A DNA stretch of 64,000 bases from Candidatus Giovannonibacteria bacterium RIFCSPLOWO2_02_FULL_45_28 (GTDB lineage: Bacteria; Patescibacteriota; Minisyncoccia; UBA11713; 2-01-FULL-45-33), in NCBI GenBank assembly GCA_001780725.1, contig MFIM01000001.1:83642-147641 (forward strand), read 5' to 3'. The notes beneath the pieces were generated by a model. The model did not search any database. It saw only the letters and a program-made list of their open reading frames with translations, and had not been told where the DNA came from. Positions within the stretch are counted from its first letter, which is position 1. Each line of letters opens with the position of its first letter. A program made the translations under genes and the position numbers. This document shows, in pieces, positions 33,793 through 60,099 of the stretch.

Positions 33793-33793
33793 T

Positions 33794-39697: not shown

Positions 39698-41008
39698 TTA
39701 ATTTTTTTCTATTTTTTTCAACTCCTCTCTGACAACTTCGCGGTCATCCCATGGAATTTTTGTGCCGCGAGGGCCCATAATCCACGGCTCGGAGCCTTTG
39801 CCGGCGATGATAACAATGTCACCTGATTTGGCGGATTTTAGTGCGGCGCGGATGGCCTCGCGCCGGTCAAGAATTTTTTTATAGTTTATAGTTTGTGGTT
39901 TATAGTTTGGCGTTTTCGAAAATCCGGCTTCAATCTCATTTAAAATAGTGGCTGGATTTTCGTCGTATGGGTCTTCGTTGGTTAAAACAATTTCATCACA
40001 AAACTCGGCCGCGATTTTCCCCATCTCCGGCCGTTTCCATTTATCGCGCCCCCCTCCGGCAGAACCAAGAACGCAGACTAATCGTCCGCCCGGAAAGAAG
40101 TCCGACTTCTTTTGGATCCCGAAGTCGGACTTCGAGGAGGGCGGATTCCCGGCTAGCGGACGCAAAGTCTCGTAAACTTTGCGAAGCGCATCCGGCGTGT
40201 GCGCGTAGTCAACCACCGCCGAGAACGGCTCGTGCTGAATAAATTCCAATCTCCCAGGCACACATTCAACTTTTTCCAGTGCGCGTTTTATTGCTTCGCG
40301 GTCCACGCCCAACACCTTCGCGGCGTGATACGCCGCAATGGCATTTTCCAAGTTAAAGTCGCCGAGGAGTTTTAAATGTATGTCGGGCGGCAAATCTTTT
40401 TTGGTGTAAACAATTTTCTGTCTGGCAGGCCTGCCTGCCGACAAGGCAGAAATCTTTAGAAAATATTCAACGCTCGGATCCTCGCCGTTTAAAATATGTA
40501 TCGGCGCTTTTTTGAAAAGCTCTGCTTTTGCCGCGCGGTATTTTTCAAACGAGCCGTGCGATTCAATGTGCTCCGGAGTCACATTTGTTAAAACAGCCAT
40601 ATAAAAATTTATCCCCGTGTGCCTGAATTGTTTTATTCCTTCCGAAGTAACCTCAATCACGACGTATTTACATCCCGCCCTGACTGCCTCCCGCAAAAAT
40701 TTCTGGAGTTTGAACCGCCCCGGCATGGTCATCTTTAAATTATTTTTTTCTTCTTTTTTATTTATCCGGAAACGCAGTGAAGAAACAGACGCGACTTTCT
40801 CACCGGCTTCTTCCAAAATGGCCGCGAGCAAATGCACAACCGTTGACTTGCCATTTGTTCCGGTTACACCGATTATCTTGAGTTTTTTAGACGGGAAAGC
40901 GTAAAAAAACGCCGCCACCCAAGCCAGCAGCCAATGATACGCAGGCTGGAGCGCGGCAAAAATAGGCCTCGGTATTATTTTTTTAAAAAAACGCAAAAAT
41001 GTTTCCAT
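39698..41008 (-). CDS. Mur ligase family protein (MurE-like) carrying an in-frame palindromic-element insertion
   Basis: 436 aa. GVTGTNGKST P-loop. DYAHTPDAL motif. Inserted segment ...SSKSDFGIQKKSDFFPGG encoded by the repeat at 40086-40152. Confidence 0.7.
   Translation of the reverse strand: METFLRFFKKIIPRPIFAALQPAYHWLLAWVAAFFYAFPSKKLKIIGVTGTNGKSTVVHLLAAILEEAGEKVASVSSLRFRINKKEEKNNLKMTMPGRFKLQKFLREAVRAGCKYVVIEVTSEGIKQFRHTGINFYMAVLTNVTPEHIESHGSFEKYRAAKAELFKKAPIHILNGEDPSVEYFLKISALSAGRPARQKIVYTKKDLPPDIHLKLLGDFNLENAIAAYHAAKVLGVDREAIKRALEKVECVPGRLEFIQHEPFSAVVDYAHTPDALRKVYETLRPLAGNPPSSKSDFGIQKKSDFFPGGRLVCVLGSAGGGRDKWKRPEMGKIAAEFCDEIVLTNEDPYDENPATILNEIEAGFSKTPNYKPQTINYKKILDRREAIRAALKSAKSGDIVIIAGKGSEPWIMGPRGTKIPWDDREVVREELKKIEKN
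40086..40152. repeat. Intragenic palindromic element copy 1 (GAAGTCCGACTTC...GAAGTCGGACTTC)
   Basis: 13-bp inverted arms at 40097-40109 and 40121-40133. In frame within the MurE-like CDS. Confidence 0.85.
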
Positions 41009-41413
41009 TGTTATGGCCTATGCACCACGCTATCCATATTAACCACTTTAAACGATTAATCCAGACGTTAAAAGCCAGAACTCCGGCCCTCGGCATTTGC
41101 GTGCCTCGTCGGAGTTGCATTATTCCAAGAATTTGCTATAATTAAGGAAAGCAAAAGGCCGATCAATTAATCGTTAATTTATAGGTAAAACTAAAAAGTA
41201 TATGAAAATTTTAAAGGAACTTACGCCAAAAAACATGCAATGTATAATAGGAAATTGCTCAGCTTGGTTCAAAACCGACAGAGGTACTTATTTGTTTATT
41301 GGCAAGAAAATAAAAAATCAGAAGGTTATGCGCGGTTTAAAAAACAGAATAGGTAAAGATGAAACCACTATAGAAGTACCGTTGAGTTTGCTAAGCAATA
41401 AGTAATAACTATC

Positions 41414-42115
41414 TTATTCGTTTTGAACTGCAATAGTGCAAATATTTTCAGCGTAATAACAACGCTCTCTAATAATTTTTAATTTGTATGCGTGAATCCA
41501 AACAGACACTCCGCCATTTTTTATAAAATCGAGATAATTTTTGTAATGCAACGGATAAACTTTGCCAATCCCGCGTTCATCTCTATCGATAAATAATTTC
41601 ATTAATCTCGCCAATAGCGTAAACTTTTTTGGAACGGAAATGTCTGTCACGACCATTATACCGCCATGCTTCACATAACTACAAATTTCATTCCAAGCTT
41701 TTTCTTGTATTTCCACGTTCATTTCGTGTAGCGAAAAGCTTAAAATCGCCGCATCAAATACCGTAGAGATCCCTAACAGCGAAGATAAGTATTGGGCGTC
41801 GCCTATCAACAATTTAGAATAACTTTGTTGCTTATTAGCTCTCGTTATCATCGTAGGGGAACGATCCACCCCAACCGCCTCAATCCCATATTTTTTTAAG
41901 TATGCCCCTAAGCCTCCGGTACCACAGCCGATGTCTAAAACGCGCTTAGCACCTAATTCATAGAGAATGCGGGCAATGTTTTTCTTAATGTGTCCGAGAG
42001 TGATTTTCTGAATTTTCTCTGAAATCGGCAAAAACCGCTTAAGTGTTTCATAATGATCTGTACTATTCATGTGGCTGTTTGGCATATGGCGGTTATGGCC
42101 TATGCACAGCCCCAC
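41414..42115 (-). CDS. Class I SAM-dependent methyltransferase
   Basis: 233 aa. Motif I VLDIGCGTGG. Confidence 0.7.
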   Translation of the reverse strand: MGLCIGHNRHMPNSHMNSTDHYETLKRFLPISEKIQKITLGHIKKNIARILYELGAKRVLDIGCGTGGLGAYLKKYGIEAVGVDRSPTMITRANKQQSYSKLLIGDAQYLSSLLGISTVFDAAILSFSLHEMNVEIQEKAWNEICSYVKHGGIMVVTDISVPKKFTLLARLMKLFIDRDERGIGKVYPLHYKNYLDFIKNGGVSVWIHAYKLKIIRERCYYAENICTIAVQNE

Positions 42116-42581
42116 CGACGTAAATAATGCCGATGGACAAAGAGAGCATTATTATAAGCTCTAACGTTTTGGTAAACGTGTAAAAACCGGAAATTAATGC
42201 CAACCCAGATGAGATCGTCAGAAGCCCGAGCCAGCCTATTACGAAAAATTCCCCCCAATGGCGCGAATAAAGGGCATATCGCCTCTTGCGCGATTCCTTT
42301 AAAATCGTGTAAATGCCAACCGCCCCCAAATAAGGCTCTGCTAAAGCCCGAATGAGCTTGGTGGCCACCGTATCAAAGCTGGACACTCCGCTCAAATACA
42401 AAAATGCTATCGCGAAAAGATAAACGTAAGTAAAAATTCCTAAAAAAAGATAAAGCGCGTCAACGGCCTCCTGAAAAAATATGTCGTTCAGCCTTTGCCA
42501 AAATGTTTTCGGCGCGTTGTTGCGCTTGTCTTCCAAGCCTGACTCGTATATATAATTAGTTGTTTCTTCCCACCAAGCCAT
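42093..42581 (-). CDS. Membrane protein (162 aa)
   Basis: Four predicted TM helices. Overlaps the methyltransferase start. Confidence 0.4.
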   Translation of the reverse strand: MAWWEETTNYIYESGLEDKRNNAPKTFWQRLNDIFFQEAVDALYLFLGIFTYVYLFAIAFLYLSGVSSFDTVATKLIRALAEPYLGAVGIYTILKESRKRRYALYSRHWGEFFVIGWLGLLTISSGLALISGFYTFTKTLELIIMLSLSIGIIYVGGAVHRP

Positions 42582-42600
42582 ACTTAAAAATTTTTAATTT

Positions 42601-43170
42601 TTAATTTCCAATTTTCAATGATTCTTTGAGGCGCAACTCTCGACCTTTTATATCCTTTGGAATTTTCTGGATCATCTCGCGCGCGTCTCTCTGTGAATAG
42701 CCCAAAGAAAGCAGGGCGTCCAGAATATCGGCATCTTCTTTCATTTCGTCAGACGCGTAAAAGGTTTTGCCGAAACCTAATTTATCTTTGAGCTCCAGCA
42801 CAATTTTTCCGGCAGTTTTTCTGCCGATGCCGGAAACTTTTGTAAGATAAGATGTGTCGCCGGAAGAAATTGCTTTTTTAATTGTATCCACCGGCGCGAG
42901 CGACAAAACTCCCAAAGCGGATTTCGGGCCTATGCCGGAAATGGAAATCAGCATTTCAAAAAATTCAAGTTCCGTTTGATTCAAAAATCCGTAAAGCTCC
43001 AGCGCGTCTTCTTTGACATGCAAATGCGTCCATAATTTTGCCGCTCCGTCCTGATTTAAATTTTTTAAATCTTGAGCGGCAACAAAAATTTTATACCCCA
43101 CGCCGCCGACATCCAAAATTACATGCCGCTCTCCTTTAAATATCACCTTGCCTTCTAAGTGTCCTATCAT
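42601..43170 (-). CDS. ruvA: Holliday junction branch-migration complex subunit RuvA
   Basis: MIGHLEGKVIFKG...ILDVGGVGYKI N-terminus. HhH motifs GIGPKSA / GIGRKTA. The ORF call begins 9 codons upstream. Confidence 0.9.
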   Translation of the reverse strand: MIGHLEGKVIFKGERHVILDVGGVGYKIFVAAQDLKNLNQDGAAKLWTHLHVKEDALELYGFLNQTELEFFEMLISISGIGPKSALGVLSLAPVDTIKKAISSGDTSYLTKVSGIGRKTAGKIVLELKDKLGFGKTFYASDEMKEDADILDALLSLGYSQRDAREMIQKIPKDIKGRELRLKESLKIGN

Positions 43171-43190
43171 TAGTATAATGGTACCACAAA

Positions 43191-45197
43191 ATGTCAACCT
43201 TTAAACTACATGAGCCATATAAGCCTGCCGGCGATCAGCCGAAAGCCATAGCACAGCTCACCAAATTACTAACTTCCGGCAGCCGACATCAGACGCTTTT
43301 GGGGGTTACGGGTTCTGGAAAAACTTTTACGATGGCGAATGTAATCGCGAATTTAGGCCGTCCGGCTTTGGTGATTTCCCACAACAAAACTTTGGCCGCC
43401 CAGCTTTATCAGGAATTTAAAACTTTTTTCCCAGAAAACGCCGTGCATTATTTTGTTTCCTACTACGACTATTACCAACCGGAAGCCTACATCCCGCAAA
43501 GCGATACTTACATAGAAAAAGACGCGCGAATCAATGATTTTATTGATGCAATGCGTCATGCCACGACCGCCACAGCGCTTACGCGCCGAGATTTTGTGGT
43601 TGTGGCATCGGTTTCCTGCATTTACGGCATCGGCGATCCGGCTGAATATGAAAAGGCAGCGCTGGAAATAAAAGAGGGGCTGCCGATTTCCCAACGCGCA
43701 TTTTTGAAAAAATTGGTTGAAATGCAGTATGAAAGGAATGACTACGAGCAGAGAGCGGGGATTTTCCGCGTCCGCGGAGAAACTGTTGAAATTTTCTCTC
43801 CCGCAGGAGATTCGGTAATTAGGATTGAGTGGAATGGGAATGTGATTGAAAGAATAAGCCAAACCGAAACGCCCCCCTCGAAGTCCGACTTCAAGACCCA
43901 AAAGAAGTCGGACTTCTTCCCGGCTGGCGGCTTAGAGGAGGCTGGCGCGAGAAAAATCTTCCCAGCCAAACACTTCGTCACACCGCAGGACAAATTAGAA
44001 CTGGCGCTTTCCAACATAGAGCTTGAACTGAAAACTAGAGCCGCGGAGCTCAAAGGGGCAGGAAAATTGTTGGAAGCGCAAAGAATAACCCAACGCACGA
44101 ATTTTGATTTAAAAATGCTCCGCGAGATCGGTTATACGCACGGCATTGAAAATTATTCGCGCCAACTTTCTTTTCGGAAACCCGGCGAACCGCCACATAC
44201 TTTATTAGATTATCTTCCGGATGATTTCATCACGTTTATTGATGAATCGCATATGTCCATCCCGCAAATCCGCGGAATGTATAACGGAGACCGCGCAAGA
44301 AAACAGGTTCTTGTGGATTACGGCTTCCGCCTGCCGTCTGCTATTGATAATCGCCCGTTAACTTTTGAAGAGTTTAATAAAAAAGCAGAGCAAGCAGTTT
44401 ATGTTTCGGCAACTCCGGCTGAATACGAAATAAAACTTTCCGGCGAACACATTGTAGAGCAAATTATCCGCCCCACCGGACTTTTGGATCCGCAGTTGGA
44501 AATCCGGTCGGCGAATCCGCCGACCGGCGGGCAGATGCCCGATGTCATCAACGAAATTCAAAAGCGGATCAAACAAAAACAGCGCGTACTTGTAACCACG
44601 CTTACAAAACGCATGGCGGAAGATTTAGCTGATTTTTTGAAAGAAAACCAAATCAAAGCTGAATATATTCATTCGGACATAAAAACGCTGGAACGGCACA
44701 AAATTTTAACCGATCTCCGAAAAGGCGCTTACGATGTTATTGTTGGAATAAATCTTCTGCGCGAGGGAATTGATTTGCCAGAAGTTTCACTTGTAATAAT
44801 TTTAGACGCCGACAAGGAGGGTTTTTTAAGAAACGCACAAACATTGATACAGACCATCGGCAGAGCTGCGCGGCATACAGGGGGAACGGTCTTAATGTAT
44901 GCAGACATAACTACGGACTCAATGCAAAAAGCGCTGGAGGAAACCGAGCGCCGTAGAAAAATTCAGGAAGAACACAACGCGAAACACGGCATTACACCTC
45001 AATCCATTCAACGCCGAATCAGCGAGAATATATTCGGCGCAGAATCATCTGTTAAAAAATTTGATTTAACAAAAATGTCCAAACAAATGTCCAAGGAAAA
45101 ATTAAAACAGGAGCTTGAAGAAGAAATGCTGGAAGCCGCCAAAGAACTTGACTTCGAAAAAGCCGCCGAATTAAGAGATTTGATTAAAACTTTATAG
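43191..45197 (+). CDS. uvrB: Excinuclease ABC subunit B with in-frame palindromic-element insertion
   Basis: 668 aa. GVTGSGKT Walker A. Helicase motifs. C-terminal UVR domain (EKAAELRDLI). Inserted ETPPSKSDFKTQKKSDFFPAGG encoded by 43872-43950. Confidence 0.95.
   Translation: MSTFKLHEPYKPAGDQPKAIAQLTKLLTSGSRHQTLLGVTGSGKTFTMANVIANLGRPALVISHNKTLAAQLYQEFKTFFPENAVHYFVSYYDYYQPEAYIPQSDTYIEKDARINDFIDAMRHATTATALTRRDFVVVASVSCIYGIGDPAEYEKAALEIKEGLPISQRAFLKKLVEMQYERNDYEQRAGIFRVRGETVEIFSPAGDSVIRIEWNGNVIERISQTETPPSKSDFKTQKKSDFFPAGGLEEAGARKIFPAKHFVTPQDKLELALSNIELELKTRAAELKGAGKLLEAQRITQRTNFDLKMLREIGYTHGIENYSRQLSFRKPGEPPHTLLDYLPDDFITFIDESHMSIPQIRGMYNGDRARKQVLVDYGFRLPSAIDNRPLTFEEFNKKAEQAVYVSATPAEYEIKLSGEHIVEQIIRPTGLLDPQLEIRSANPPTGGQMPDVINEIQKRIKQKQRVLVTTLTKRMAEDLADFLKENQIKAEYIHSDIKTLERHKILTDLRKGAYDVIVGINLLREGIDLPEVSLVIILDADKEGFLRNAQTLIQTIGRAARHTGGTVLMYADITTDSMQKALEETERRRKIQEEHNAKHGITPQSIQRRISENIFGAESSVKKFDLTKMSKQMSKEKLKQELEEEMLEAAKELDFEKAAELRDLIKTL
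43872..43950. repeat. Intragenic palindromic element copy 2
   Basis: Arms at 43880-43892 and 43904-43916, followed by TTCCCGGCTGGCGG...GGCTGGCGCG. In frame in uvrB. Confidence 0.85.
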
Positions 45198-45214
45198 TAT
45201 ATTAAACTACTTCT

Positions 45215-45454
45215 ATGCCAATAACTTCGTCGGCCAAAAAAGCATTAAGGCAATCCCGCACCAGGCGGGGGAAGAATTTGGTTTGGAAAGACAAACTAAA
45301 AGAAGCCGTCAAAACAACAGAGAAAACCAAGTCGGCAGAATCGCTGCGCCTTGCTTACAAAACCATAGATAAATCCGCCAAAAGGGGTCTCATCAAAAAA
45401 AACAAAGCCGCCAGGATGAAATCTAGGCTAGCTAAGCTTTTATCGCCAAAATAA
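45215..45454 (+). CDS. rpsT: 30S ribosomal protein S20
   Basis: 79 aa. MPITSSAKKALRQS... S20 helical family. Confidence 0.85.
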   Translation: MPITSSAKKALRQSRTRRGKNLVWKDKLKEAVKTTEKTKSAESLRLAYKTIDKSAKRGLIKKNKAARMKSRLAKLLSPK

Positions 45455-46301
45455 ATCTTTCCAAAATCTCATAGGCGTTTTTGGGGTCGCGGCGGATTGC
45501 TGATTCAGCAAGTATCCCATGCCAATATGCGTCGGCCATTCTTTTTTGCTTTGCCTTCCAAAGCAACGGATAAATAAGCCTCTGCAAGTCTTGGCCGGAA
45601 ATTTCCGCTTCTTTGAGAGCCAAAAGCGCCCAGCCCAACGAGGCGGAGAAAATTTTTTCAACAAAGGGAAAGGGGCTAGCGCCAGCCTCTTTGAAGTCCG
45701 ACTTCAAATCCCCAAAGAAGTCGGACTTCTTCCCGGCTGGCGGCTTCAAAGGGGCTGGCGCGCCTAAGACTCTTTTCTCCAATTCATTCTCCAGCGCCCA
45801 CTCTGCCACTCCGCCAGCTGGCGGACCAGCCTCTTCAATAATTATCGCGCATTCTTCTTTACTCAATCCAAACCCCAACGCTTTTGCTTTTTTATCCACC
45901 CAAGCCGCCAGCTCTTTTTTGGTCAGCGGACGCACTTCCTGTATTTTTTCGGCATATTTTTTAAAAAAATTAAGCGTTGATTTTACCGATTCTTTTTCCC
46001 AAAAAACAAAAATGTCGCGCGATGCCTTTATAAAATCCCCGTTTTTTTTCAGGATTTTAAAAATACTTTCATTGGATTCCAAAACATTTTTAAAAATAAC
46101 TAATCTGGTTTTAGAAAATAAATTGCCCTGCTCCAAAGCGGCATAAAATTTTTCCGGCTGAATTTCGTCGGCGTCTCCGTCAAATTCTTCAACCAGAACA
46201 TTTCCACCCGCCTGCCGAGATTTTTTATAAAATGCGGATTTTAATTCTCCGATTTTGCGGAGCGCTTGATAGGAATTTGGCCCAAGGAGAAGATACATCA
46301 T
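45432..46301 (-). CDS. holA: DNA polymerase III delta subunit (HolA-like) with in-frame palindromic-element insertion
   Basis: 289 aa. N-terminal MYLLLGPNSYQ. Adjacent to rpsT as in many bacteria. Inserted LKPPAGKKSDFFGDLKSDFKEAGAS encoded by 45672-45766. Confidence 0.6.
   Translation of the reverse strand: MMYLLLGPNSYQALRKIGELKSAFYKKSRQAGGNVLVEEFDGDADEIQPEKFYAALEQGNLFSKTRLVIFKNVLESNESIFKILKKNGDFIKASRDIFVFWEKESVKSTLNFFKKYAEKIQEVRPLTKKELAAWVDKKAKALGFGLSKEECAIIIEEAGPPAGGVAEWALENELEKRVLGAPAPLKPPAGKKSDFFGDLKSDFKEAGASPFPFVEKIFSASLGWALLALKEAEISGQDLQRLIYPLLWKAKQKRMADAYWHGILAESAIRRDPKNAYEILERFILAIKA
45672..45766. repeat. Intragenic palindromic element copy 3
   Basis: Arms at 45693-45705 and 45717-45729. 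Outer inverted repeat GCGCCAGCC / GGCTGGCGC. Downstream part near-identical to copy 2. Confidence 0.85.
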
Positions 46302-47608
46302 TGTCTTTCGTGAGTAACATCGTGAATAATTTTAAGATAACGCTGCTCCGGAAGCGGGCCAATGCCTTTGATATACACGGTGATTATCTGCAAAACCCTT
46401 TTTTGCGGCGACATAAATGTTATTTCGTACACATTTTCCCCGACATTCTGCTTCTGCGTCGGAAAAAATACTTTCCACAATTTCTCAAATCCGAGAAAGG
46501 CGGCCGCGCTCTCTGTAATATAAAGTTCTTTCGGGGGTGATTCCGCAATATCTAAATATTTTTTAGCGGCCGGATTAATGGCTAAAATTTGATTTTCCCC
46601 GGTATATTCAATAATGCCGTCCGGAATATAAGCGATGGTTCTTTCTCTTTCTGCGCGCTCGCGCCCAACGCTTACAATCGCGCGCATAAGTCTGATGGTG
46701 CTGAAAATCAAAAGCGCCAACAGCGCCAAGCTCGCCACGGAAAAAGTAACAGCCACGAACAGGGTTTGATTGCGCTGCTTCAGCGCTACTGCTTCACGCT
46801 GCTCCACAACCACACCCCACCCGGTTGACGGCATCTTGAGTCCGAGCGCCAGCACATTTTCGTTTTTTTCGTTTACGTACCGGTTAAACTCAATCCTCTC
46901 TCGGCCCTGAACCAAAAGGTTAACGATCTCGCGATATTTTAAATTTTCCCCGGAACGCGCTAGTTCAATATCCGGATCCGAAATTATCGCACCGCGGCTA
47001 TCCACAAGATATATTTTCCCTTCCTCCACCGATGTTTTGCTTGCTACCCCCCAAAGAAGAGTAAAATCTATTTCGCTGGAGGCCACTGCAGCGACTTTCC
47101 CATTTCGTATTATGGGAGCGGAGATTTGCAGTGACGGGCCATGCGGACCAAAAAAAACCGGGCTGATGTAACGTTTCCCGGCCAAAGCTTCTTTAAAAAA
47201 GGAACTGTTTTTTACCGAAATCTCTGAAAATTGCGGGGCCGTATCCCGCCGCACCAAAGAACCCAAACGCTCGCCGTCCGTGTTAAAAATAAGCAGATTT
47301 ATAAAGTCGCTCCGGCTGCCAAAAAAAACTTCAGAAAGGGTTTCACCCTTGTTGATATCTTCAAGAAAATGGCCGCTGAAATGAATCAGGTCTTGAAAAG
47401 TTAAATCTAAAAACAAATCCAACAAAGCAATGGCGTGCGAAGCAGTTGTGTTTTGAGAAATTATGGCGTTTTGCTCAACGCCGTTTAAAACAGGGAAAAG
47501 CCAATAAAAACTGGCTGTAACAAGAAAAATACCGACCGCAAATATGATCGCGACATTATACCAAAGAGGGCCGGAAACAAGCCGAGTCCACTTCTTAATA
47601 AAATCCAT
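46298..47608 (-). CDS. Membrane sensor (Cache/PAS) protein lacking kinase domains; N-terminal paralog of the histidine kinase at 50461-52551
   Basis: 436 aa. TM-periplasmic-TM-PAS architecture. Ends at ...YLKIIHDVTHERQ, exactly where the HisKA H-box region begins in the paralog (FLKILHDISREK...). Confidence 0.55.
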   Translation of the reverse strand: MDFIKKWTRLVSGPLWYNVAIIFAVGIFLVTASFYWLFPVLNGVEQNAIISQNTTASHAIALLDLFLDLTFQDLIHFSGHFLEDINKGETLSEVFFGSRSDFINLLIFNTDGERLGSLVRRDTAPQFSEISVKNSSFFKEALAGKRYISPVFFGPHGPSLQISAPIIRNGKVAAVASSEIDFTLLWGVASKTSVEEGKIYLVDSRGAIISDPDIELARSGENLKYREIVNLLVQGRERIEFNRYVNEKNENVLALGLKMPSTGWGVVVEQREAVALKQRNQTLFVAVTFSVASLALLALLIFSTIRLMRAIVSVGRERAERERTIAYIPDGIIEYTGENQILAINPAAKKYLDIAESPPKELYITESAAAFLGFEKLWKVFFPTQKQNVGENVYEITFMSPQKRVLQIITVYIKGIGPLPEQRYLKIIHDVTHERQ

Positions 47609-47628
47609 ATGCTATTTTGTGTGAACGC

Positions 47629-48609
47629 CTAAAACTTTATAAACAACTCTCTGGGGTTTCTGGGGATTTCCTTGATGAAACCGAATTCCGCTGCTTTTTG
47701 CATCACAAATACGGCATTATCAATAAACTCATCGTCCCAGCGCGACGGAAAAGCTTTTGACAGGCGCTCAACAATAAAATTTACTTCCGCTTCAGTTTTG
47801 GCGCCTACCACCTCGCGAGCATACTTGGCAACGATTTCCGGATGATCTTTAATTTGTTTGGACGCTTCAATCCTCATAGCAGCAAAATGTTCTGCGGTAT
47901 CCCGATTTGCCGCAATCCAGTCGGCATAGGCAGCTCGAGCGTTAAAAAAGTAAGGAATGTTGTATTTCTCCTTCCACAAGTCCGCGAGATTAAGAAGCTC
48001 CCGATACTGACCAGAAACGATAAGTTGTGCCGCCAGAGGGTCTGGAAGAAAAGCGGCATCCACCTCACCACCCTTAAGAGAAGAAAGAATATCAGGAATG
48101 CCGCCAAAAGTAAGAGAAAACTCTTTTTCTAAATCTATACCCAAAATCTTAAGCTCCAAAGCCATGCTTTGGTAACCAGCGGTTGCCTTCGGCAACACCG
48201 CAATCTTTTTTCCTTTTAGGTCGTCTATGGTTCTATACTTAGAGTTGGTTTTAACCAGCAGGCCATGAATGGCAGTCAGGAGCGGCGCTAAAGCGCGGAT
48301 ATCCCTTCCCGCTTGTTGAGACTGAACAAGCTCAATAGGACTAAGGGCGCCAACATCAACTTCCCGAGCAATGGTTCTCCGCGCAACTTCACCCGGCTCT
48401 ACCGCTTGGATAGTAAGGTCAAGGCCATGTTGTTTATCAAGTTTGAGTTGCTCAATTACGTATTTAAGCAGCCCCTCCGCGCCAGTAGCCACAAATGTTG
48501 CGCTAACTTTTTTAGGCTCCGACGGCTTTTTAGCTGGCCAGGCCCAAAGCGCGATTCCTATTAAAACCGCAATTCCAACAATTATCAAAACATGTTTTTT
48601 TACATTCAT
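47629..48609 (-). CDS. NMT1/THI5-like ABC substrate-binding protein (paralog 2)
   Basis: 326 aa. Signal anchor. Similar to 34887-35891 and 48628-49587. Confidence 0.6.
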   Translation of the reverse strand: MNVKKHVLIIVGIAVLIGIALWAWPAKKPSEPKKVSATFVATGAEGLLKYVIEQLKLDKQHGLDLTIQAVEPGEVARRTIAREVDVGALSPIELVQSQQAGRDIRALAPLLTAIHGLLVKTNSKYRTIDDLKGKKIAVLPKATAGYQSMALELKILGIDLEKEFSLTFGGIPDILSSLKGGEVDAAFLPDPLAAQLIVSGQYRELLNLADLWKEKYNIPYFFNARAAYADWIAANRDTAEHFAAMRIEASKQIKDHPEIVAKYAREVVGAKTEAEVNFIVERLSKAFPSRWDDEFIDNAVFVMQKAAEFGFIKEIPRNPRELFIKF

Positions 48610-48627
48610 ATTTTAATGAAATCCATA

Positions 48628-49587
48628 TTACTCAATAAAAATATTTTCTCTCGGAAATTCCTGAATCAGTTTTAGCTCAAAAGCTTTTTTAACAAGAGCG
48701 TCGTGCGCCTCCGGTAGCCATGTAAGCGGGAAAATTGCCGGCAGACGCTCTTTCATCAAGTTTATTTCTTCCGGACGCTGAAGCCCCAAAATCTGTTTGT
48801 ATTCTTCTATCAACTGCGGATTTTTCCGAATGAAAATTGCCGCATCCGAAATCGCCTCTCTCAAACGCTCAACATTCTTCGGATTTTGTGAAATCCAGTC
48901 CGCATGCGCCGCTAAATCAACAAACGGTATAACAGAAGAACCAGTCATGCTGCCCCACTCATCGCTCAAGTTGATTATCTCTCTGTAGTTGCCAGTTGCT
49001 AAAAAGCGCGCCGTGGCAACCACGTTTAAAAACGCCGCCTCTACTTCTCCTTTAGCCAAACGTTCCTCGTTTTGCGGAAACGAGCCAAAAACAAGCTTGA
49101 AATCGCGATCCAAATCCAGTCCCAACGTTTTCATCCCCAAAGCGTGCATGGTATAAGATGCGCTCCCTTTCGGGTGCATGGCGATTCTCGCGCCCTTAAG
49201 ATCTTCAAATCTATAAAATGTGGATTTGGCCCTCACCACCAAGGCCTGATTGGTTTGGTAAGTAGACGCGAACGCACGCAGTTTTGTGTTTTTAGTCTGG
49301 TTGGCAATAACAATTGATAACGGATTTATGCTGCCCACTTCAACTCCGTCTACTTTCTCAATTAAGCGGCGTTCTGCTTCGAATGGAGGCGCAAAAGCTA
49401 CATCCAACTTCAACCCGTGTTTCTCTGCAATCCCTTTGTCCTGCAATACCGCCAGCAAAAATTTCAAATTTTCGGCATCCGCAAAACTCATTTTGACGGT
49501 TTCAATCTTGTTAGCGGAAAAATAATAAAATCCAGCCAACGCGACCACAGCAACCGACAACAAAATGTAAAATAATTTATATCTCAT
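48628..49587 (-). CDS. NMT1/THI5-like ABC substrate-binding protein (paralog 3)
   Basis: 319 aa. Same family. Confidence 0.6.
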   Translation of the reverse strand: MRYKLFYILLSVAVVALAGFYYFSANKIETVKMSFADAENLKFLLAVLQDKGIAEKHGLKLDVAFAPPFEAERRLIEKVDGVEVGSINPLSIVIANQTKNTKLRAFASTYQTNQALVVRAKSTFYRFEDLKGARIAMHPKGSASYTMHALGMKTLGLDLDRDFKLVFGSFPQNEERLAKGEVEAAFLNVVATARFLATGNYREIINLSDEWGSMTGSSVIPFVDLAAHADWISQNPKNVERLREAISDAAIFIRKNPQLIEEYKQILGLQRPEEINLMKERLPAIFPLTWLPEAHDALVKKAFELKLIQEFPRENIFIE

Positions 49588-49595
49588 AACTTAAA

Positions 49596-50441
49596 TTAAA
49601 AATATTTCTTTTTAAGAACGACCTTTATTTTGGCAATAATTTCGTTTGGAGTAAAATGGGCTTTGACCATAAAATCTTCCGCTCCGCCGGAAAGCGCCCT
49701 ATCCATGTCTTCCTTCTGCCCGAGATTGGAAAGCACTATCACCGGTATTTGTGATAATTGCTTATCTCCTTTTACGCGCCTCAAAACCTCAAACCCGTCC
49801 AATCCGGGCAAGATAAGATCAAGCAAAATTAAATCCGGGAGTTTTTCTTCTACCATTTTTAGTCCTTCCTCGCCGTCCAGCGCTTCAAATGTCAAAAAAC
49901 CTTCCCGCTTGAGCTTTTGCACAATTAAATCCCGTAAAAATTTATCATCTTCTACAATTAATATGCGCGCCTTGCCGCCGCCACCGGAGCTTTTAACGAT
50001 CAACGCGTCTTCTGGTTCCGCCGCCTTAGACTGCGTGGTTTCTGACGATTTGTGATTTTTTGGAGATGAATCCGCCTTACCCAATACCTTTTCCACCTTC
50101 TCCAGGACATCGGCCGGATTAAATTCTGCCTTCACCAAATAATCGCGCGCACCCATCTTCATCGCCCGGTCTACTTCCACGGGCTGGCCGGAGTTTGAAA
50201 CCACGATTATTGGAACAGTTGAACCGTCTTTTTTAAGGCGCTCCAAAACTTCAAAACCGTTCATTTTCGGCAAAATTATATCCAAAAGCACAAGATCCGG
50301 ATTTTCATCCTTAACCATCCTATAACCGGCCTCCCCGTCCGTAGCCACAAGAACGCTGTAACCCTCGTATTCCAACTTAGCCTTCATGACATTAAGGTGC
50401 ACAAGCTCGTCTTCTATGATTAAAATCTTTAGCATGGCCAT
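49596..50441 (-). CDS. Tandem-receiver response regulator (two REC domains, no output domain)
   Basis: 281 aa. Two D-D...D/K receiver domains (ILIIEDE...LLDIILP and ILIVEDD...LLDLILP). Confidence 0.8.
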   Translation of the reverse strand: MAMLKILIIEDELVHLNVMKAKLEYEGYSVLVATDGEAGYRMVKDENPDLVLLDIILPKMNGFEVLERLKKDGSTVPIIVVSNSGQPVEVDRAMKMGARDYLVKAEFNPADVLEKVEKVLGKADSSPKNHKSSETTQSKAAEPEDALIVKSSGGGGKARILIVEDDKFLRDLIVQKLKREGFLTFEALDGEEGLKMVEEKLPDLILLDLILPGLDGFEVLRRVKGDKQLSQIPVIVLSNLGQKEDMDRALSGGAEDFMVKAHFTPNEIIAKIKVVLKKKYF

Positions 50442-50460
50442 ATAGCTTTATAGTATCATG

Positions 50461-52551
50461 TTAAATTGTTTCTAAAAACTCTTCCAGTGGCTGGGTTTCT
50501 TCGCTGGGGACAAGTTCTTTTTTGACAGGCAGGGTCAGGACGAAGCTTGAGCCTTGGCCTTCTTTGGAAACAAATTGAATATCCCCGCCGTGGCGCCTGA
50601 TAATGTTGCGCACAATAAAAAGTCCGAGTCCGGTTCCTTCTGTCTCCATGCGTATTACATTGGAAGCCCTGAAAAACTTTGAAAAAACGCGCTTTTGCTC
50701 GGCGGCCGGTATTCCTACTCCGGTGTCCGAAATACTAACTATTGCGTAATCTCCTTTGAGTTCCGGCTTTATGGTGATCTTGCCGTTAACTGTGGTGTAT
50801 TTAATCGCATTTTCAAGCAAGTTGTTGAAAGCCAGAGTAAGTTTTTCCTGATCGGCATAAATAAGAGGAAAGCTTTTTGTTAAGCCCTCAAGCCTTAAAT
50901 CAATGGATTTTTGACGAACGATGCCGGTATAATTTTTAACGGCGTCTCTTAAAAATTCTCCCAAGTCAATATCTCTAAACTCATATCCAAACTTTCCTTC
51001 CTCTATGCGCGCGGCGTTAAGAAGATCGTTGACCAGTTTAATCATTCTTTCATTAGTCTCGTAACCCTTGGAAAGAAAATCCAACTGTTCTTTAGAAAGC
51101 GCGCCGGCATCTCCGTCCAAAAGCAGGCGCAATGTCCACTTAATCGCCGACAGCGGTGTGCGCAATTGATGCGCGGCGATGGAAACAAATTCCGATTTAA
51201 GCCGGGTCAAAAGCTTTTCGCGGGAAATATCGTGTAAAATTTTTAGAAATCCGCGGACATTTCCTGCCCGATCAACAACATGCGTCATTGTAATAAGCAA
51301 TCTCAAATCCGGAGCCGAAATATGCACCTCCATGGTTTTGGTAAAAGGCGCCCCAAGAACTTGTTTGACGCTGGAGGCGTAAGGCGCCAAAGCGGGATAC
51401 ATCAATTCCACAAGGCCTTTGAGTTTATCATTGGTTTTGGCTAATTCCGGAGTTACAACTACCCCGCTGATATCGGAGAATTTTACTCCCAAAAGCTCCT
51501 CCGCCCTTGGGTTCATTAAAATAATTTGGGACTGGTCGTTGTATTCAATCACGCCATCCGAAAGGCTGTTTAAAATCGCCTCTCTTTGATTTCTTTCTGA
51601 ATAAAAAAGCGCGGCGGCTCTTACTAAATTGAAATAGTTCCAAACCAACAAAAACAGCAATAAAATTTCCAGCACGAATGAAATAATCGCTGCCGACAAA
51701 ATTCGTCTTGATGAAGCAAGCGCGAAAGACCTCGGATTTTCCACCACAACACCCCAGCCGGTAAGCGCAAAAGGTAAAGCAACCGCAAACACATTCTCCC
51801 CTTTTTCATTGTTGTAAACTAAGGTTGCGTCGCGCGTGTCGGCTTCTCGCCCGGATAAGACGGTGGCGATGATTTTCCTTTCCAGTATATTAACGCGCCC
51901 GAATACCAAAGATGAATTGGGGTGGGCAATTATGAAGCCGTCGCGATCAACAACGTAAGTCTCACCCTGATCTCCTATTTTTATTCCGCGGACAACGTCC
52001 AGTAAAAATTTCAAATTGACGTCGGCGACAATCGCGGAAAAACCCGACTCCTTTCTTAGCGGCAAAGCAATTGTAATCAACGGTTCTGAAATGCCTGAGA
52101 CCAGCACCGGGCCGCGATAAATCTCTCCGCGGCTTATCACTTTGAAAAGGTCCTCTCCAGATCTGTCTTTTAAATCAGCCGGCGTAATAAGCAAAAATCT
52201 GTGATTTTTTAGGCTCTCGCGGCCATTTTGATCCAAAAGAGTAAGCGATTCAAACGGCTGGTTTTCTTTCATCAATCTATAAACGGTGGTTTCCCCAAGA
52301 GCGCCGTTTTGATTAATAATATCAACCGCATTTCCCAAAGAGTTTTCGTATCGGCCCAAAAAAGCGGCTGTTTGATTTCTCACATCCAATGCAAAAGACC
52401 GGTGCAGCACGTAAGCGTTTGTCTCCAATTCATCCAGTGTAGGCAAAAGCCATGCGGCGTTCGCGGCCGTCAACGCCAAAACCGCAACTAAGCCCAAAGC
52501 CCATAATTGCGACTTTTTCCCAAAGAAAAATTCAATAATAGTTTGCCGCAT
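50461..52551 (-). CDS. Sensor histidine kinase (Cache-like periplasmic domain, PAS, HisKA, HATPase_c)
   Basis: 696 aa. H-box AAHQLRTPLSAI. N/G1/G2 boxes (NLLENAIKYT; DTGVGIP; GTGLGL). Confidence 0.85.
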   Translation of the reverse strand: MRQTIIEFFFGKKSQLWALGLVAVLALTAANAAWLLPTLDELETNAYVLHRSFALDVRNQTAAFLGRYENSLGNAVDIINQNGALGETTVYRLMKENQPFESLTLLDQNGRESLKNHRFLLITPADLKDRSGEDLFKVISRGEIYRGPVLVSGISEPLITIALPLRKESGFSAIVADVNLKFLLDVVRGIKIGDQGETYVVDRDGFIIAHPNSSLVFGRVNILERKIIATVLSGREADTRDATLVYNNEKGENVFAVALPFALTGWGVVVENPRSFALASSRRILSAAIISFVLEILLLFLLVWNYFNLVRAAALFYSERNQREAILNSLSDGVIEYNDQSQIILMNPRAEELLGVKFSDISGVVVTPELAKTNDKLKGLVELMYPALAPYASSVKQVLGAPFTKTMEVHISAPDLRLLITMTHVVDRAGNVRGFLKILHDISREKLLTRLKSEFVSIAAHQLRTPLSAIKWTLRLLLDGDAGALSKEQLDFLSKGYETNERMIKLVNDLLNAARIEEGKFGYEFRDIDLGEFLRDAVKNYTGIVRQKSIDLRLEGLTKSFPLIYADQEKLTLAFNNLLENAIKYTTVNGKITIKPELKGDYAIVSISDTGVGIPAAEQKRVFSKFFRASNVIRMETEGTGLGLFIVRNIIRRHGGDIQFVSKEGQGSSFVLTLPVKKELVPSEETQPLEEFLETI

Positions 52552-52556
52552 TTGCT

Positions 52557-53564
52557 CTACTCTTGATAGATTTTATTGGCCTGCAAGCGCAAAGACTCCG
52601 GGATTAGAAGTCCAATCTCGTTGGCAAGTTTTGCGTTAATTTCAAAAGTAAGCGCGGAAGCAAACTCAATCGGGATCTCACCGGGGTCTGCCCCTTTGAG
52701 AACTTTGTCAATAATTCTCGCGCCTTGTTTCCCGACTTCAAATCTAGGAATACCGTAAACCATGAGATAGCCGGAGGAAACTCCTCGCTCAACGTTAAAA
52801 TCAATTGAAGGAATTTTAGCCTGCTTAAGCGGCGGAGCGATAAGGCTGGAATTTCCGGAAATAACGGCATCATTGACAGTCATAAACGCGCCGGCGCCGT
52901 CGCGAACCAATTTTTGCATAGCCGCCGGAACATCTTCTTGTTTTGCAACGTCATACCAAAGCACACGGAGTCCCAATTTGCCCGCCGCTTCTTCGTAAAC
53001 TTTTATCACCTGTTGGTAGCTCACATTTTTAGGATTTGCCAAACTGCCGATAGTTTTTAATTTCGGAACAAGGGTTTTTAAAATCTCCATCCGTTTAGGA
53101 GCCGTTGAAACATTATCTACAACAACTCCGGTCATAAATCCTCCCGGATACTGAATATTTTCCACGCCCAATTGCGCAAAGTTGCCCACATCCACCGCCA
53201 CAACCGGGATTTTAGCATCCTTATTTGCGTCTTTCACTGCGCTAGACGCGCTGGTTGACACAGAAACAATTAAATCCGGATTTGAAGCTACGATTTCCGA
53301 AGCTAATTTTTTTGTAAGATCTAAGTCGCCCTTTGGATTTCTTACTTCAATAACAATATCTTTCCCCTCTTCGTACCCGAGCTCCTTAAGGCCGGCCTTG
53401 ATGCCGTCCACGGAGGCAAGCTGTAAATCGGACGCCGTAAGCACGGCGATTTTTTTAGGAGTGGGACTCGGTATACTCCGAAACGGAGGCGCCACAAAAA
53501 ACACGAAAGCCGCCGAGCCGAGCAATATTAATAAAATAATTAGTGCTACTTGTTTATTGCCCAT
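52557..53564 (-). CDS. ABC-type substrate-binding protein of the PF04392 family (often paired with sensor kinases)
   Basis: 335 aa. N-terminal anchor. PBP type I fold. Confidence 0.5.
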   Translation of the reverse strand: MGNKQVALIILLILLGSAAFVFFVAPPFRSIPSPTPKKIAVLTASDLQLASVDGIKAGLKELGYEEGKDIVIEVRNPKGDLDLTKKLASEIVASNPDLIVSVSTSASSAVKDANKDAKIPVVAVDVGNFAQLGVENIQYPGGFMTGVVVDNVSTAPKRMEILKTLVPKLKTIGSLANPKNVSYQQVIKVYEEAAGKLGLRVLWYDVAKQEDVPAAMQKLVRDGAGAFMTVNDAVISGNSSLIAPPLKQAKIPSIDFNVERGVSSGYLMVYGIPRFEVGKQGARIIDKVLKGADPGEIPIEFASALTFEINAKLANEIGLLIPESLRLQANKIYQE

Positions 53565-53578
53565 GTGCTTCTATTATA

Positions 53579-54475
53579 TCACTCGGAATTCAGTCTCGCC
53601 ACAAGGCTGGTAAAGCCAAGTTCTTCAAAAAGGGCTTTTAATTGGTCCTTGCGAAGTTGGAAGCCAGAAATCGGGAGTTGGAAATTAATTGGCGCATCTC
53701 GCCGGATAGTAGCAAGTGTTTTTGAAAAAAATGCGTCTTCTTTGTGATCCGAAAGCAAATTTATAACGCGCTCTTTCACAATCTTTCCGACTTCTAATCT
53801 CCCACCTCCGACTTCTAATTTGTTATATAAATTTTCCAGCGTTGCAAAATTTTTAATTATATCAGTCGCAGTTTTTTCGCCTATGCCTTTTACTCCGATG
53901 ATATTATCCGATGGGTCACCCTTTAACCCTTTAAAGTCCGGTATGGCGGACGGGGGGAATCCGTACCTCTCAACCACTTTTGCCTCGTCATATATAACCG
54001 TGTCCTCAATGCCTTTGCGCAAAGTGTAAACAACAACCTTGTTGTCATCTACCAACTGCAAAACATCCATATCGCCCGAGACAATAATTGTTTTTGTGTC
54101 TTTTAATTTTTTAGTTTGTTCCACGATCGTCCCCAAAATGTCATCGGCCTCAAATCCGGCCGCGTCTAAAATAGGAATTCCGAACGCTTCAACAACATCG
54201 CGCGACCGAATCAATTGTTTTACCAAATCGTCTTCCGCTTCCGGACGTTTGGCTTTGTAGGCTTCGTAGCTTTCGTGCCGGAAGGTCGGCTCGGGCCGGT
54301 CAAACGCGGCAACAATATAATCCGGTTTTAATTCCCGAATAACTTTCAAAAGCATAGTTGAAAGGCCGTAAAGCGCTCCGGTCGGCTCGCCGGTATTTTT
54401 GGAAGTAAACTTCGGAAGCGCGTGATACGCACGATGAATTAAAGCATGAGCGTCCAATAAAACAAGTGTTTTCAT
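53579..54475 (-). CDS. 5'-3' exonuclease (Pol I N-terminal domain/FEN-like)
   Basis: 298 aa. LLLDAHALIHRAYHALP start. Acidic metal-binding clusters. HhH region. Confidence 0.8.
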   Translation of the reverse strand: MKTLVLLDAHALIHRAYHALPKFTSKNTGEPTGALYGLSTMLLKVIRELKPDYIVAAFDRPEPTFRHESYEAYKAKRPEAEDDLVKQLIRSRDVVEAFGIPILDAAGFEADDILGTIVEQTKKLKDTKTIIVSGDMDVLQLVDDNKVVVYTLRKGIEDTVIYDEAKVVERYGFPPSAIPDFKGLKGDPSDNIIGVKGIGEKTATDIIKNFATLENLYNKLEVGGGRLEVGKIVKERVINLLSDHKEDAFFSKTLATIRRDAPINFQLPISGFQLRKDQLKALFEELGFTSLVARLNSE

Positions 54476-54936
54476 ATAATTATTTTTATCAGGCGGTGCT
54501 CGTGATGTCTAATGTGTTTAAAAATTATGCGCATGGCGTTTTTCGGCAGAATATTTTTTATTTTGTCTCCCCATTCTACTAAAATTATATTTTTGGGGTC
54601 GCGTATAAAATCGCGCCAATTCAAAACTTTAAAACCTTTTGATTTTAGGCGGTAGGCGTCAATATGAATGAATTGCCTTACGCCGTAGGCTTTACGCCTT
54701 ACGCTGTATATTCGCATTATCACAAACGTCGGGCTTCGGGGATTTTCTTTAATGCCCAATCCTTTGGCAAATCCCTGTGTAAAAGTTGTTTTTCCGGAAC
54801 CAAGTTCACCCTCAAGGCTGATGATAATAGCCCCCCTTTTGATTGAAGTCGGACTTCGATCAATTTCGTGAGCTAGTTTTTCGCCGAGTTTTTTTGTTTC
54901 TTTAGCGCTGCGAGTTAAAATTTCGATGTTCTCCAT
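54472..54936 (-). CDS. tsaE: tRNA threonylcarbamoyladenosine biosynthesis protein TsaE with short in-frame palindromic insertion
   Basis: 154 aa. LEGELGSGKTTF P-loop. The segment IDRSPTSIK is encoded by the palindrome at 54829-54853. Confidence 0.75.
   Translation of the reverse strand: MENIEILTRSAKETKKLGEKLAHEIDRSPTSIKRGAIIISLEGELGSGKTTFTQGFAKGLGIKENPRSPTFVIMRIYSVRRKAYGVRQFIHIDAYRLKSKGFKVLNWRDFIRDPKNIILVEWGDKIKNILPKNAMRIIFKHIRHHEHRLIKIII
54829..54853. repeat. Compact palindromic element copy 4 (TTGATTGAAGTCGGACTTCGATCAA)
   Basis: 25-bp near-perfect palindrome containing the same GAAGTCGGACTTC core. In frame in tsaE. Confidence 0.7.
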
Positions 54937-59752: not shown

Positions 59753-60025
59753 ATGAACACTATTACTGCTCCGCGCGCGATCAAAAAAGGAGAGGAATTT
59801 GTTATCATACCACGCAAAGAATACGAGGAATTTTTACGTGCGCACAAAATGAACGGAAAGAAATATGAAAACATAGTTGTAAAACATACAATAAAAGTGC
59901 CGAAAAGGCATAAGAAATTTTATGAAGAATTGGATAAGGAACTAACCGAATCTCTAAGAGAATATTACGCAGGAAAATCATATGGACCATTCGATTCTAT
60001 TAATAAATTAAAAATGGCCGCTTAG
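59753..60025 (+). CDS. Hypothetical basic protein (90 aa)
   Basis: ORF with no recognised motif. Confidence 0.3.
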   Translation: MNTITAPRAIKKGEEFVIIPRKEYEEFLRAHKMNGKKYENIVVKHTIKVPKRHKKFYEELDKELTESLREYYAGKSYGPFDSINKLKMAA

Positions 60026-60099
60026 ACGTCGGACGTCTAAGTGGCCGAAAAACGATAACCAGCTTTGTGCCGTTGCTTACAACTTGCGGCGCCCCGGCT

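Follow-up and report, generated by a model that had tools for sequence, protein, structure and literature searches.

How did a family of small palindromes come to lie in frame within conserved genes, and what moves it? The question is raised by a 64,000-nucleotide (nt) stretch of DNA (the window) from Candidatus Giovannonibacteria bacterium RIFCSPLOWO2_02_FULL_45_28, in which the genes for a Mur ligase, UvrB, a HolA-like protein and TsaE each contain a repeat built on the 13-mer GAAGTCSGACTTC (GAAGTC[C/G]GACTTC). The in-frame palindromic repeats are real. We propose that they are non-autonomous Patescibacteria hairpins of the repetitive extragenic palindrome (REP) type, arranged in part as REP doublets forming hairpins (REPINs), and that they are probably moved by a REP-associated tyrosine transposase (RAYT)-like enzyme of the HUH-Y1 class.

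A pattern search allowing up to one mismatch returned seven exact matches to the 13-mer in the window, about one per 9 kb, against a chance expectation of 0.03 on average in dinucleotide shuffles, none of 100 of which gave seven. These seven 13-mers, or heads, form three inverted doublets and one singlet (Table 1). The doublets, at 40097-40133, 43880-43916 and 45693-45729, have a spacer of 11 nt in each case, as a preliminary description of this DNA had reported, and the extended tail that it saw in the second and third copies, TTCCCGGCTGGCGGCTT...GGCTGGCGCG, was recovered within a 77-nt stretch of 87% identity. The reverse complement of the 40097 pair matches both of the other pairs. The compact 25-bp palindrome described in tsaE also exists, but at 54839-54863 rather than 54829-54853, ten bases to the right; the end of the described region, 54853, cuts through the element, whose 13-mer occupies 54845-54857. 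All four GAAGTC loci of the window are intragenic and lie in uninterrupted open reading frames (ORFs) with domain or family matches, in agreement with the claim that every copy keeps the frame of its host gene, and all four insert peptides that had been quoted are present in the translations. Searched against Rfam at gathering thresholds, the window matched only two tRNAs, with no family for the hairpins.

In the sense of its gene, the Mur-ligase doublet reads TCCGCCC-TCCTC-GAAGTCCGACTTC-GGGATCCAAAA-GAAGTCGGACTTC-TTTCC-GGGCGGA; a remnant arm, CGCTAGCC-GGGAA, adjoins it at 40146-40160, and the repeat region codes for ...PLAGNPPSSKSDFGIQKKSDFFPGG... The uvrB doublet is followed by a second copy of its outer right arm (GAGGAG-GCTGGCG) and codes for TPPSKSDFKTQKKSDFFPAGGLEEAGAR. 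On the forward strand the HolA-like doublet reads CGCCAGCC-TCTTT-head-AAATCCCCAAA-head'-TTCCC-GGCTGGCG, with a duplicated arm, and gives the peptide PAGKKSDFFGDLKSDFKEAG. The host protein here is assigned by the NCBIfam model holA (TIGR01128, E 2.5e-17, and down to 6e-25 among five orthologues), under its curated cutoff; a Pfam search gave no match, and a search of its profile against PDB sequences found nothing. The tsaE singlet has a 6-bp lower stem, including one T.G pair, and is read in the SPTS frame (EIDRSPTSIKR). Folded as single-stranded DNA (ssDNA), the three doublet regions gave -21.5 to -31.6 kcal/mol with z from -3.3 to -6.5 against shuffles (Mur ligase, -21.5 kcal/mol, z -4.7; HolA-like, -31.6 kcal/mol, z -6.5), and the singlet folded weakly (-6.4 kcal/mol, z -2.3).

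The doublets are built to a common plan. Twelve Giovannonibacteria elements share a 63-nt scaffold composed of an 8-nt stem, TCCTC, a 13-nt head, an 11-nt loop ending in CCCAAA, the second head, TTCCC and the returning 8-nt stem. The linkers are nearly invariant, and the heads (GAAGTC, AACACT, AACATC, GAAACC) and outer stems (CGCCAGCC/GGCTGGCG, TCCGCCC/GGGCGGA, CGCTTCGC/GCGAAGCG and others) covary. Across the twelve elements pairing holds for 97% of cells, and both sides have changed in 17 of 21 pairs, a level reached by none of 500 shuffles and approached by no slid register. Because the elements had been picked by their head helix, the outer helix alone tests covariation independently; it is 93.6% paired, with compensatory changes in seven of its eight pairs. 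A long REPIN-type hairpin is thus backed by both folding and covariation. Each head is itself palindromic, with only C or G at its centre, and the two heads of a doublet are 12/13 identical as direct repeats; doublet and singlet therefore differ by 24 nt and the frame is kept. Other arrangements occur outside the window (G-C, G-G and C-C doublets, and tandem independent hairpins). Two further ideas were dropped: that the outer stems are an inverted target duplication, suggested by GGCGGA at the empty Mur-ligase site of one related locus (L195), because equal stems recur at unrelated sites, and that GUCSGAC mimics an anticodon loop, which was unsupported.

The dyad symmetry of the 13-mer and its identity across distant lineages would also suit a signal read in double-stranded DNA and enriched by drive, such as an uptake sequence, the site of a dimeric regulator or a restriction-modification site. 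The uptake sequences of Neisseria and Haemophilus likewise occur as inverted pairs and within genes. Such a signal is nevertheless very unlikely here, since the copies come as 60-63-nt modules with stems and linkers rather than as point mutations, their density in the window is low, GAAGTC is replaced by other heads on the same scaffold and, as described below, the hairpins are tied to Y1 transposase genes.

Comparison with relatives identifies the segments as lineage-specific insertions, as had been supposed. An alignment of the window UvrB with that of B. caldotenax (PDB 2FDC) runs over the full length and shows a 15-residue gap in the latter exactly at the repeat. The window protein is 100% identical to UvrB of Candidatus Giovannonibacteria bacterium RIFCSPLOWO2_12_FULL_44_25, and at least 12 close orthologues (76-82% identical) lack the insert and read KIS-G-x-G-KIFP, the empty site being KIS-GSG-KIFP in orthologues at 79-82% identity. 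At the same codon the remaining relatives carry a flipped element (APAGKKSDFFGDLKSDFEEAG), a shorter version, a decaying version or different palindromic heads; the element is in the opposite orientation to that of the window in L090 and L114 (L numbers denote loci, and P numbers UvrB orthologues). The other three sites are likewise polymorphic in L195 and L196, which are syntenic and have empty uvrB sites. The Mur-ligase site is empty in L195, L196 and L039 and holds a nested element or another head in L044, L090, L009 and L106. The HolA-like site is empty in L196, has the heads AACATC in L195 and GAAACC in L044, and a nested copy in L114. The TsaE orthologue of L195 is two codons shorter at the site and has no head. 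Different heads share one codon in UvrB, Mur ligase and HolA, and give unrelated peptides there (TLGV, TSDA, KPGF). In the Mur-ligase gene of L044 and the HolA-like gene of L114, a complete 61-nt element lies precisely between the GAAGTC and GACTTC halves of an older head, for a net gain of 60 nt, and further split heads were found elsewhere. The head apex looks like a preferred target, which would explain the repeated occupation of the same codons. Filled and empty sites of UvrB, Mur ligase and HolA show no evident direct duplication, at 70-80% DNA identity that does not allow the junctions to be placed to the nucleotide.

These comparisons also bear on whether the palindromes are artefacts of assembly or sequencing, for example from adapters or chimeras in metagenome assemblies. 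Long perfect palindromes are known to arise as artefacts and all of the data are metagenome-assembled, yet equal inserts occupy orthologous codons in assemblies made independently by different projects, keep the frame, diverge alongside their hosts and show compensatory changes; we give an artefact practically no chance. An adapter origin was also considered for AAGTCGGA, which we take to resemble the start of a sequencing adapter, and was rejected since its copies are in frame, orthologous across projects and covarying.

An AlphaFold model of the window UvrB was poor overall (mean pLDDT 62, from 41 close sequences). In it the encoded peptide, residues 229-250, has a pLDDT of about 33, the deepest local drop, between two strands of domain 2, which is consistent with a floppy loop. 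Extra short lineage-specific inserts were also seen at several positions in other UvrB orthologues (P0005, P0014, P0015, P0018, P0020, P0024, P0027, P0038, P0043), for example PASPAGR, PAGKAG and DLDVRRPSGRRTS, along with inserts of 45-50 residues at the domain 2 site. Read at the protein level, the residues DLDVRRPSGRRTS would fit GACGTC-type heads, and the sequences suggest that many element types may decorate UvrB.

Next, we searched with the doublet, using 26 fixed bases, against a collection of bacteria and archaea with one genome per species. The hairpin-forming family proved to be dispersed far beyond the window, in support of the preliminary description, with the doublet in at least 114 public loci from many independent projects. 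Judged by the titles of the metagenome-assembled genome (MAG) records, nearly all are Patescibacteria; the matches listed also include a few MAGs titled Omnitrophota, Ignavibacteriales, Bacteroidota, Chloroflexota and cyanobacterial. Among the matches listed only the 13-mer is constant, and its flanks are lineage-specific lower stems, such as AATCTCCC...GGGAGATT in L113 and AAATTAAG...CTTAATTT in L078. GAAGTC is the commonest 6+1+6 palindrome among the loci listed (260, against at most 12 for any other), a ranking that is not independent because the loci were selected for this motif. The doublet was not found in 2.9 million IMG/VR viral contigs, which gives no sign of a phage vector.

Among the matches listed, 66 of 120 doublets (55%) lie in frames that run on without a stop for 150 nt or more to either side. 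These 66 coding copies use all three frames: KSDF in 34, SPTS in 19 and EVRL in 13. The use of three frames, and of both orientations at one site, fits a selfish insert that is tolerated better than it fits a peptide under selection. That KSDF is the commonest frame might suggest that the KSDF...KSDF peptide is a selected protein module adding a function to its host. This reading is largely refuted by the frame and orientation data, and we consider it extremely unlikely: SPTS and EVRL/EVGL frames are also in use, the element is flipped between orthologues, unrelated peptides stand at the same codon, the insert is missing from close relatives, and in the UvrB model no part of domain 2 has lower confidence than this segment.

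Two groups of copies have a different setting. In nine loci from MAGs titled Ignavibacteriales, Bacteroidota and Synechococcales (L020, L029, L030, L042, L064, L079, L088, L099, L103), the same 13-mer pair has spacers of 18-20 nt, is almost always outside long ORFs and has most of its heads extended by A...T. These nine loci had no match in Rfam, and could represent a related REP family outside the candidate phyla radiation (CPR) or binning contamination. In one marine biofilm MAG, the doublet is set in A-run...T-run flanks (aaaaaaca-[13]-GGGGAGCTCCCC-[13]-tgtttttt; L001 3243, L006 3587, L050 2029) and looks like a bidirectional intrinsic terminator; the L001 copy sits inside a uvrA-like ORF.

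Could the hairpins be selected cis-acting structures in mRNA or DNA, kept as attenuators, RNase or stability elements, terminators or gyrase/IHF-type sites for the regulation of the host genes? They are very stable, their stems covary, some intergenic copies with T-runs on both strands (L001, L006, L050) are terminator-like, and classical REPs have secondary roles of this type (PMC3733652). On the other hand, their presence varies among close relatives in presumably essential housekeeping genes, their orientation can be opposite at one orthologous site, the host genes are unrelated, all three frames are used, no Rfam family matches and a strong terminator-like hairpin in uvrB or the Mur ligase gene would be costly. 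We therefore hold this explanation to be quite improbable; individual copies may have been exapted as regulatory hairpins.

A candidate enzyme emerged when the ORFs of the 114 loci were clustered unsupervised and without prior expectation. A Y1_Tnp family of about 230 residues recurs in six of the 114 loci listed, with the motifs NHxHxL and LxxY(I/V)xxN, and with an invariant HUH motif and catalytic Tyr. The proteins match Pfam Y1_Tnp (PF01797) at E 1e-7 to 1e-9 (30-38 bits against a cutoff of 23), and REP_Tyr_transpos, at a score under its curated cutoff, is the sole NCBIfam match of all six. A search of their profile against PDB sequences gave only a marginal similarity to ISDra2 TnpA (E ~0.4). 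The family comprises at least 7,225 protein clusters at E <=1e-10, with named members called only 'transposase' or 'hypothetical protein' of CPR taxa. The gene was mostly seen on one contig per protein cluster and hence gives no obvious sign of being multicopy. A DDE transposase did not recur in the ORF families commonest beside the repeats, of which only a few were annotated.

The genes of this family are accompanied by the hairpins. In L068, L078 and L113 GAAGTC hairpins stand on both sides of the gene, within about 40 nt of its ends or overlapping the ends of the delimited ORF, and in L078 and L113 the dispersed copies of the contig carry the lower stem of the gene-flanking hairpins. As a reciprocal test we took 80 metagenome loci (L115-L194) centred on homologues of the Y1_Tnp protein. 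The closest homologues again have the GAAGTC head: in L115, which was fetched independently, GAAGTC hairpins directly adjoin the gene on both sides, in L119 and L122 the head has one mismatch, and in L116 it lies further downstream. Around more distant homologues the flanks hold other perfect palindromes, which recur within the locus (GGTGTC, GAGGTT, GAGAAC, GACATC, AGAGTT, AAGGTT, AAGGCG, AGGGTC, CGGGTT). A lineage-specific perfect palindrome occurs both within 150 nt upstream and close downstream in 24 of the 80 loci, its centre usually 21-90 nt upstream and 12-94 nt downstream of the gene. The flank scan scored only perfect stems with a 1-nt centre and is an undercount; for that reason it missed L037, where a Giovannonibacteria RAYT-like gene is flanked by CACTTGGACAC-CGA-GTGTCCAAGTG. 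This hairpin has the lower stem of the intergenic window hairpin at 33763-33795, and its head is that of the AACAC elements found in frame in UvrB and Mur ligase of related genomes. The relative orientation of upstream and downstream hairpins, judged from the centre base, was checked for a consistent inversion and found to be inconsistent.

The palindrome can also enter the transposase gene itself. An in-frame internal copy was found in 15 of the 80 loci, including 12 of the 24 with palindromes on both sides, at a fixed place, +154 to +202 nt (some 55-65 codons in). These copies sit in the variable region before the HUH motif (for example L129 4190, L141 4179, L172 339, L186 834/854), and in two loci of the genome set, L113 (575-610) and L085 (3259-3292), an in-frame doublet lies in the same variable region. 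For classical RAYTs we know of no description of an in-gene copy of the flanking palindrome. The internal copy could serve self-regulation or mark a former element end.

The main alternative to mobilisation by the RAYT-like enzyme is that these are orphan palindromes, similar to Rickettsia palindromic elements (RPEs), which spread by recombination or gene conversion, by hairpin-induced replication slippage or through an unknown enzyme, RAYT-like genes being just another place where they accumulate. Heads that are 12/13 identical direct repeats would allow slippage to interconvert singlets and doublets in frame, by 24 nt, and recombination could also produce heads recurring at the same sites. 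The window has no RAYT gene, and the L085 gene has a doublet inside and a different flanking palindrome. Against this, each RAYT lineage has its own palindrome at fixed distances (-21 to -90, +12 to +94) in about two dozen independent loci, the dispersed copies in L113 and L078 have the lower stem of the RAYT-flanking copies, and the arrangement is the defining layout of a REPtron (PMC3733652, PMC5581495). We judge orphan palindromes to be unlikely.

Several points weigh against the preferred reading of REPIN-like hairpins moved by a RAYT-like enzyme. No RAYT-like gene was found in the 64-kb window by tblastn with six RAYT-like proteins (best E 0.14), and these proteins score 34 bits with REP_Tyr_transpos against a curated cutoff of 80, so that their kinship with characterised RAYTs is distant. 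Of the 80 RAYT-centred loci, 44 had no repeated perfect palindrome in a scan that left hairpins with 3-nt loops or mismatches unscored, many of them on short contigs, and only about five have an exact or near-exact GAAGTC head. Identity between GAAGTC-flanked RAYTs can fall to 27% (L068 and L078), which leaves no simple correspondence of head and enzyme, and L085 combines a doublet inside the gene with a different palindrome downstream. The conserved GTAG/CGTC tetranucleotide of classical REPs was not found at the foot of the GAAGTC hairpin, judging by base composition beside the 13-mer and beside the extended stems; GTAG appears inside the stem base in just a few further lineages, namely in L172 and, on the downstream side of the gene, in L085. 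All data come from MAGs, and the taxonomy of the loci follows the record titles.

The unit is a perfect stem-loop whose tip, GAAGT-CSG-ACTTC, is common to many lineages and whose lower stem is lineage-specific; two inverted units make up the REPIN-like doublet, of 63 nt in Giovannonibacteria. For its movement we propose the following mechanism. A RAYT-like HUH-Y1 enzyme, presumably present in this particular genome and encoded elsewhere in it, would recognise the folded ssDNA hairpin, chiefly by its tip. The element would be cut and pasted in trans through an ssDNA intermediate and without target duplication, in the manner of IS200/IS605 and REP-RAYT enzymes. Existing hairpins, above all the head apex, would be favoured targets, which would explain nested copies and recurrent hot spots. 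With almost no intergenic space available, the survivors would be stop-free copies of a multiple of three in tolerant surface loops, where they would be translated as short peptides such as KSDF. Direct evidence covers the repetition, the covarying hairpins, the insertion polymorphism, the open frames and, in related genomes, the head-specific flanking of RAYT-like genes; catalysis by such an enzyme, the ssDNA intermediate, translation of the inserts and presence of the enzyme in this genome are what we infer.

We compared the system with the REP/REPIN-RAYT systems, especially the group 3 REPtrons of Pseudomonas, Stenotrophomonas and Marinomonas. Both have short, perfect, dispersed palindromic hairpins, inverted two-unit doublets that fold into one long hairpin, and a hairpin sequence that changes with the transposase lineage, the tip being its conserved part. 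A REPtron is a Y1 HUH transposase gene flanked by a hairpin that is dispersed in the genome (PMC5581495, PMC3733652), and related genomes have this layout, with the cognate hairpin on both sides of the gene (L068, L078, L113 and L115, L037, and about two dozen lineages). Group 3 TnpA-REP enzymes act on perfect palindromes with 3-nt loops, some positions of which allow no mutation, and a conserved tip on a drifting lower stem fits recognition of this kind (PMC8266576). There are also differences. The GTAG/CGTC foot tag is absent, the transposase is only distantly related and falls below the NCBIfam cutoff, over half of the copies sit in frame within genes instead of being extragenic, the 15 loci with their own hairpin in frame inside the transposase gene depart from classical RAYTs, and an identical 13-nt tip spans many CPR lineages, unlike classical REPs, which are species- or genus-specific. 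The system works like REPIN-RAYT while departing from classical REPs in two defining features, tag and extragenic location.

The analogy to RPEs drawn in the preliminary description holds for behaviour: both are palindromic inserts tolerated in frame. Di Nocera et al. (2013) described intragenic GTAG/CGTC REP dimers coding for 20-30 residues, often in repair or replication genes including those of excinuclease ABC proteins (PMC3733652). Like the RPEs and these REPs, the elements here are in-frame palindromes in functional genes of a reduced genome, lineage-specific when compared with orthologues; shared features are also dimers encoding about 20-30 residues, repair and replication hosts (excinuclease ABC, polymerases) and different elements near the same orthologous site. 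In-frame palindromic inserts are thus not new in kind. The likeness is one of behaviour, with no evident sequence relation, the elements being set apart from RPEs and CGTC REPs without direct sequence comparison; they are not placed in the RPE families. Their host belongs to the Patescibacteria, the others' to Proteobacteria or Verrucomicrobia, and they are linked to a candidate enzyme family. RPE-1 is longer, about 100-150 bp, and we know of no dedicated transposase for RPEs or CGTC REPs.

IS200/IS605 elements (TnpA Y1; IS608, ISDra2) have a transposase of the same Pfam Y1_Tnp superfamily and a gene bracketed by subterminal hairpins, and by analogy movement as ssDNA without target duplication would be expected. 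Here, unlike in IS200/IS605, the dispersed units are short hairpins, left and right hairpins are the same perfect palindrome, there is no tnpB and the gene is not obviously multicopy. Mitochondrial double-hairpin elements and GC clusters of fungi, algae and animals are small mobile hairpin pairs that can also sit in frame within protein genes of compact genomes; they differ in being organellar, in having no transposase known to be associated with them and in their unrelated sequences.

What sets the system apart is the CPR host, the lack of a GTAG/CGTC tag, the intragenic position of 55% of the doublets listed, the shared 13-nt tip and the in-gene hairpin of the transposase. Neither 13-mer string was found in the full-text literature (PMC open access and bioRxiv), and none of the papers listed there linked RAYT, REPIN, IS200 or REP with CPR, Patescibacteria or Parcubacteria. 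The proposal gives in-frame palindromic inserts a definite candidate enzyme and a mechanism, so far missing for the classic Rickettsia elements, and would extend REPIN-RAYT biology to the CPR. Some of the puzzling lineage-specific insertions and length differences of CPR core proteins may be accounted for in this way, as may assembly breaks around host genes. The conserved tip is a simple marker for following the elements in metagenomes, and a 230-residue protein with a 13-nt hairpin tip makes a directly testable system. More tentatively, and with somewhat less than even confidence, we suggest an ancient, radiation-wide REPIN-RAYT partnership of the Patescibacteria that shifted from intergenic DNA into coding genes. 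Its tip would be conserved to the nucleotide across classes, it would be served by a large, unannotated RAYT-like family of at least 7,000 clusters, and its enzyme gene would carry its own in-frame hairpin, perhaps to regulate or mobilise itself. Much of the lineage-specific loop insertion in CPR housekeeping proteins would then stem from repeated insertion, flipping and nesting at apexes.

Table 1 Palindromic elements of the window, with position, strand and setting.
Element	Position	Strand	Setting
REPIN-like doublet	40085..40160	-	Mur-ligase ORF 39698-41008(-), 436 aa, Pfam Mur_ligase_M + Mur_ligase_C
REPIN-like doublet	43866..43952	+	uvrB ORF 43191-45197(+)
REPIN-like doublet	45674..45764	-	HolA-like ORF 45432-46301(-), 289 aa
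Singlet, one head	54839..54863	-	TTGATTGAAGTCGGACTTCGATCAA in tsaE ORF 54472-54936(-)
51-nt near-perfect palindrome, different head	2999..3049	-	methionine aminopeptidase ORF 2607-3431, in frame
Second small palindrome in uvrB, CCGGTCGGCGAATCCGCCGACCGG	44504..44527	+	4-aa insert (SANP/PTGG) relative to B. caldotenax UvrB
Intergenic REP-like perfect hairpin	33763..33795	.	head GGTGTC-C-GACACC, lower stem AAACCACTTGG, adjoins tRNA gene; z -4.7
REP-like hairpin, no long open frame (13 nt open on one side)	60016..60046	.	head GACGTC-G-GACGTC, lower stem GGCCGCTTA; z -6.5

Finally, the window has additional hairpins whose heads are related. The palindrome in the methionine aminopeptidase gene has 22 pairs and a 5-nt loop and codes for TQTEFRSTSDLNSVWG; the same site holds a GAAGTC doublet in L022 and is a 10-residue gap in distant orthologues. 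Only some Giovannonibacteria orthologues have a palindrome at the second uvrB site; others lack it, P0004 and P0009 reading NPPAGG. The lower stems of the hairpins at 33763-33795 and 60016-60046 are CACTTGG and GCTTAG, and the CACTTGG stem and GGTGTC/ACAC heads, as at 33763, flank RAYT-like genes in L037, L193, L131 and L132. Two pairs of direct repeats in the window, 23547-23673/24052-24178 and 2111-2205/2610-2704, are about 500 nt apart and 90% and 86% identical; they appear to have nothing to do with the hairpin family and may reflect adjacent paralogous genes or domains.

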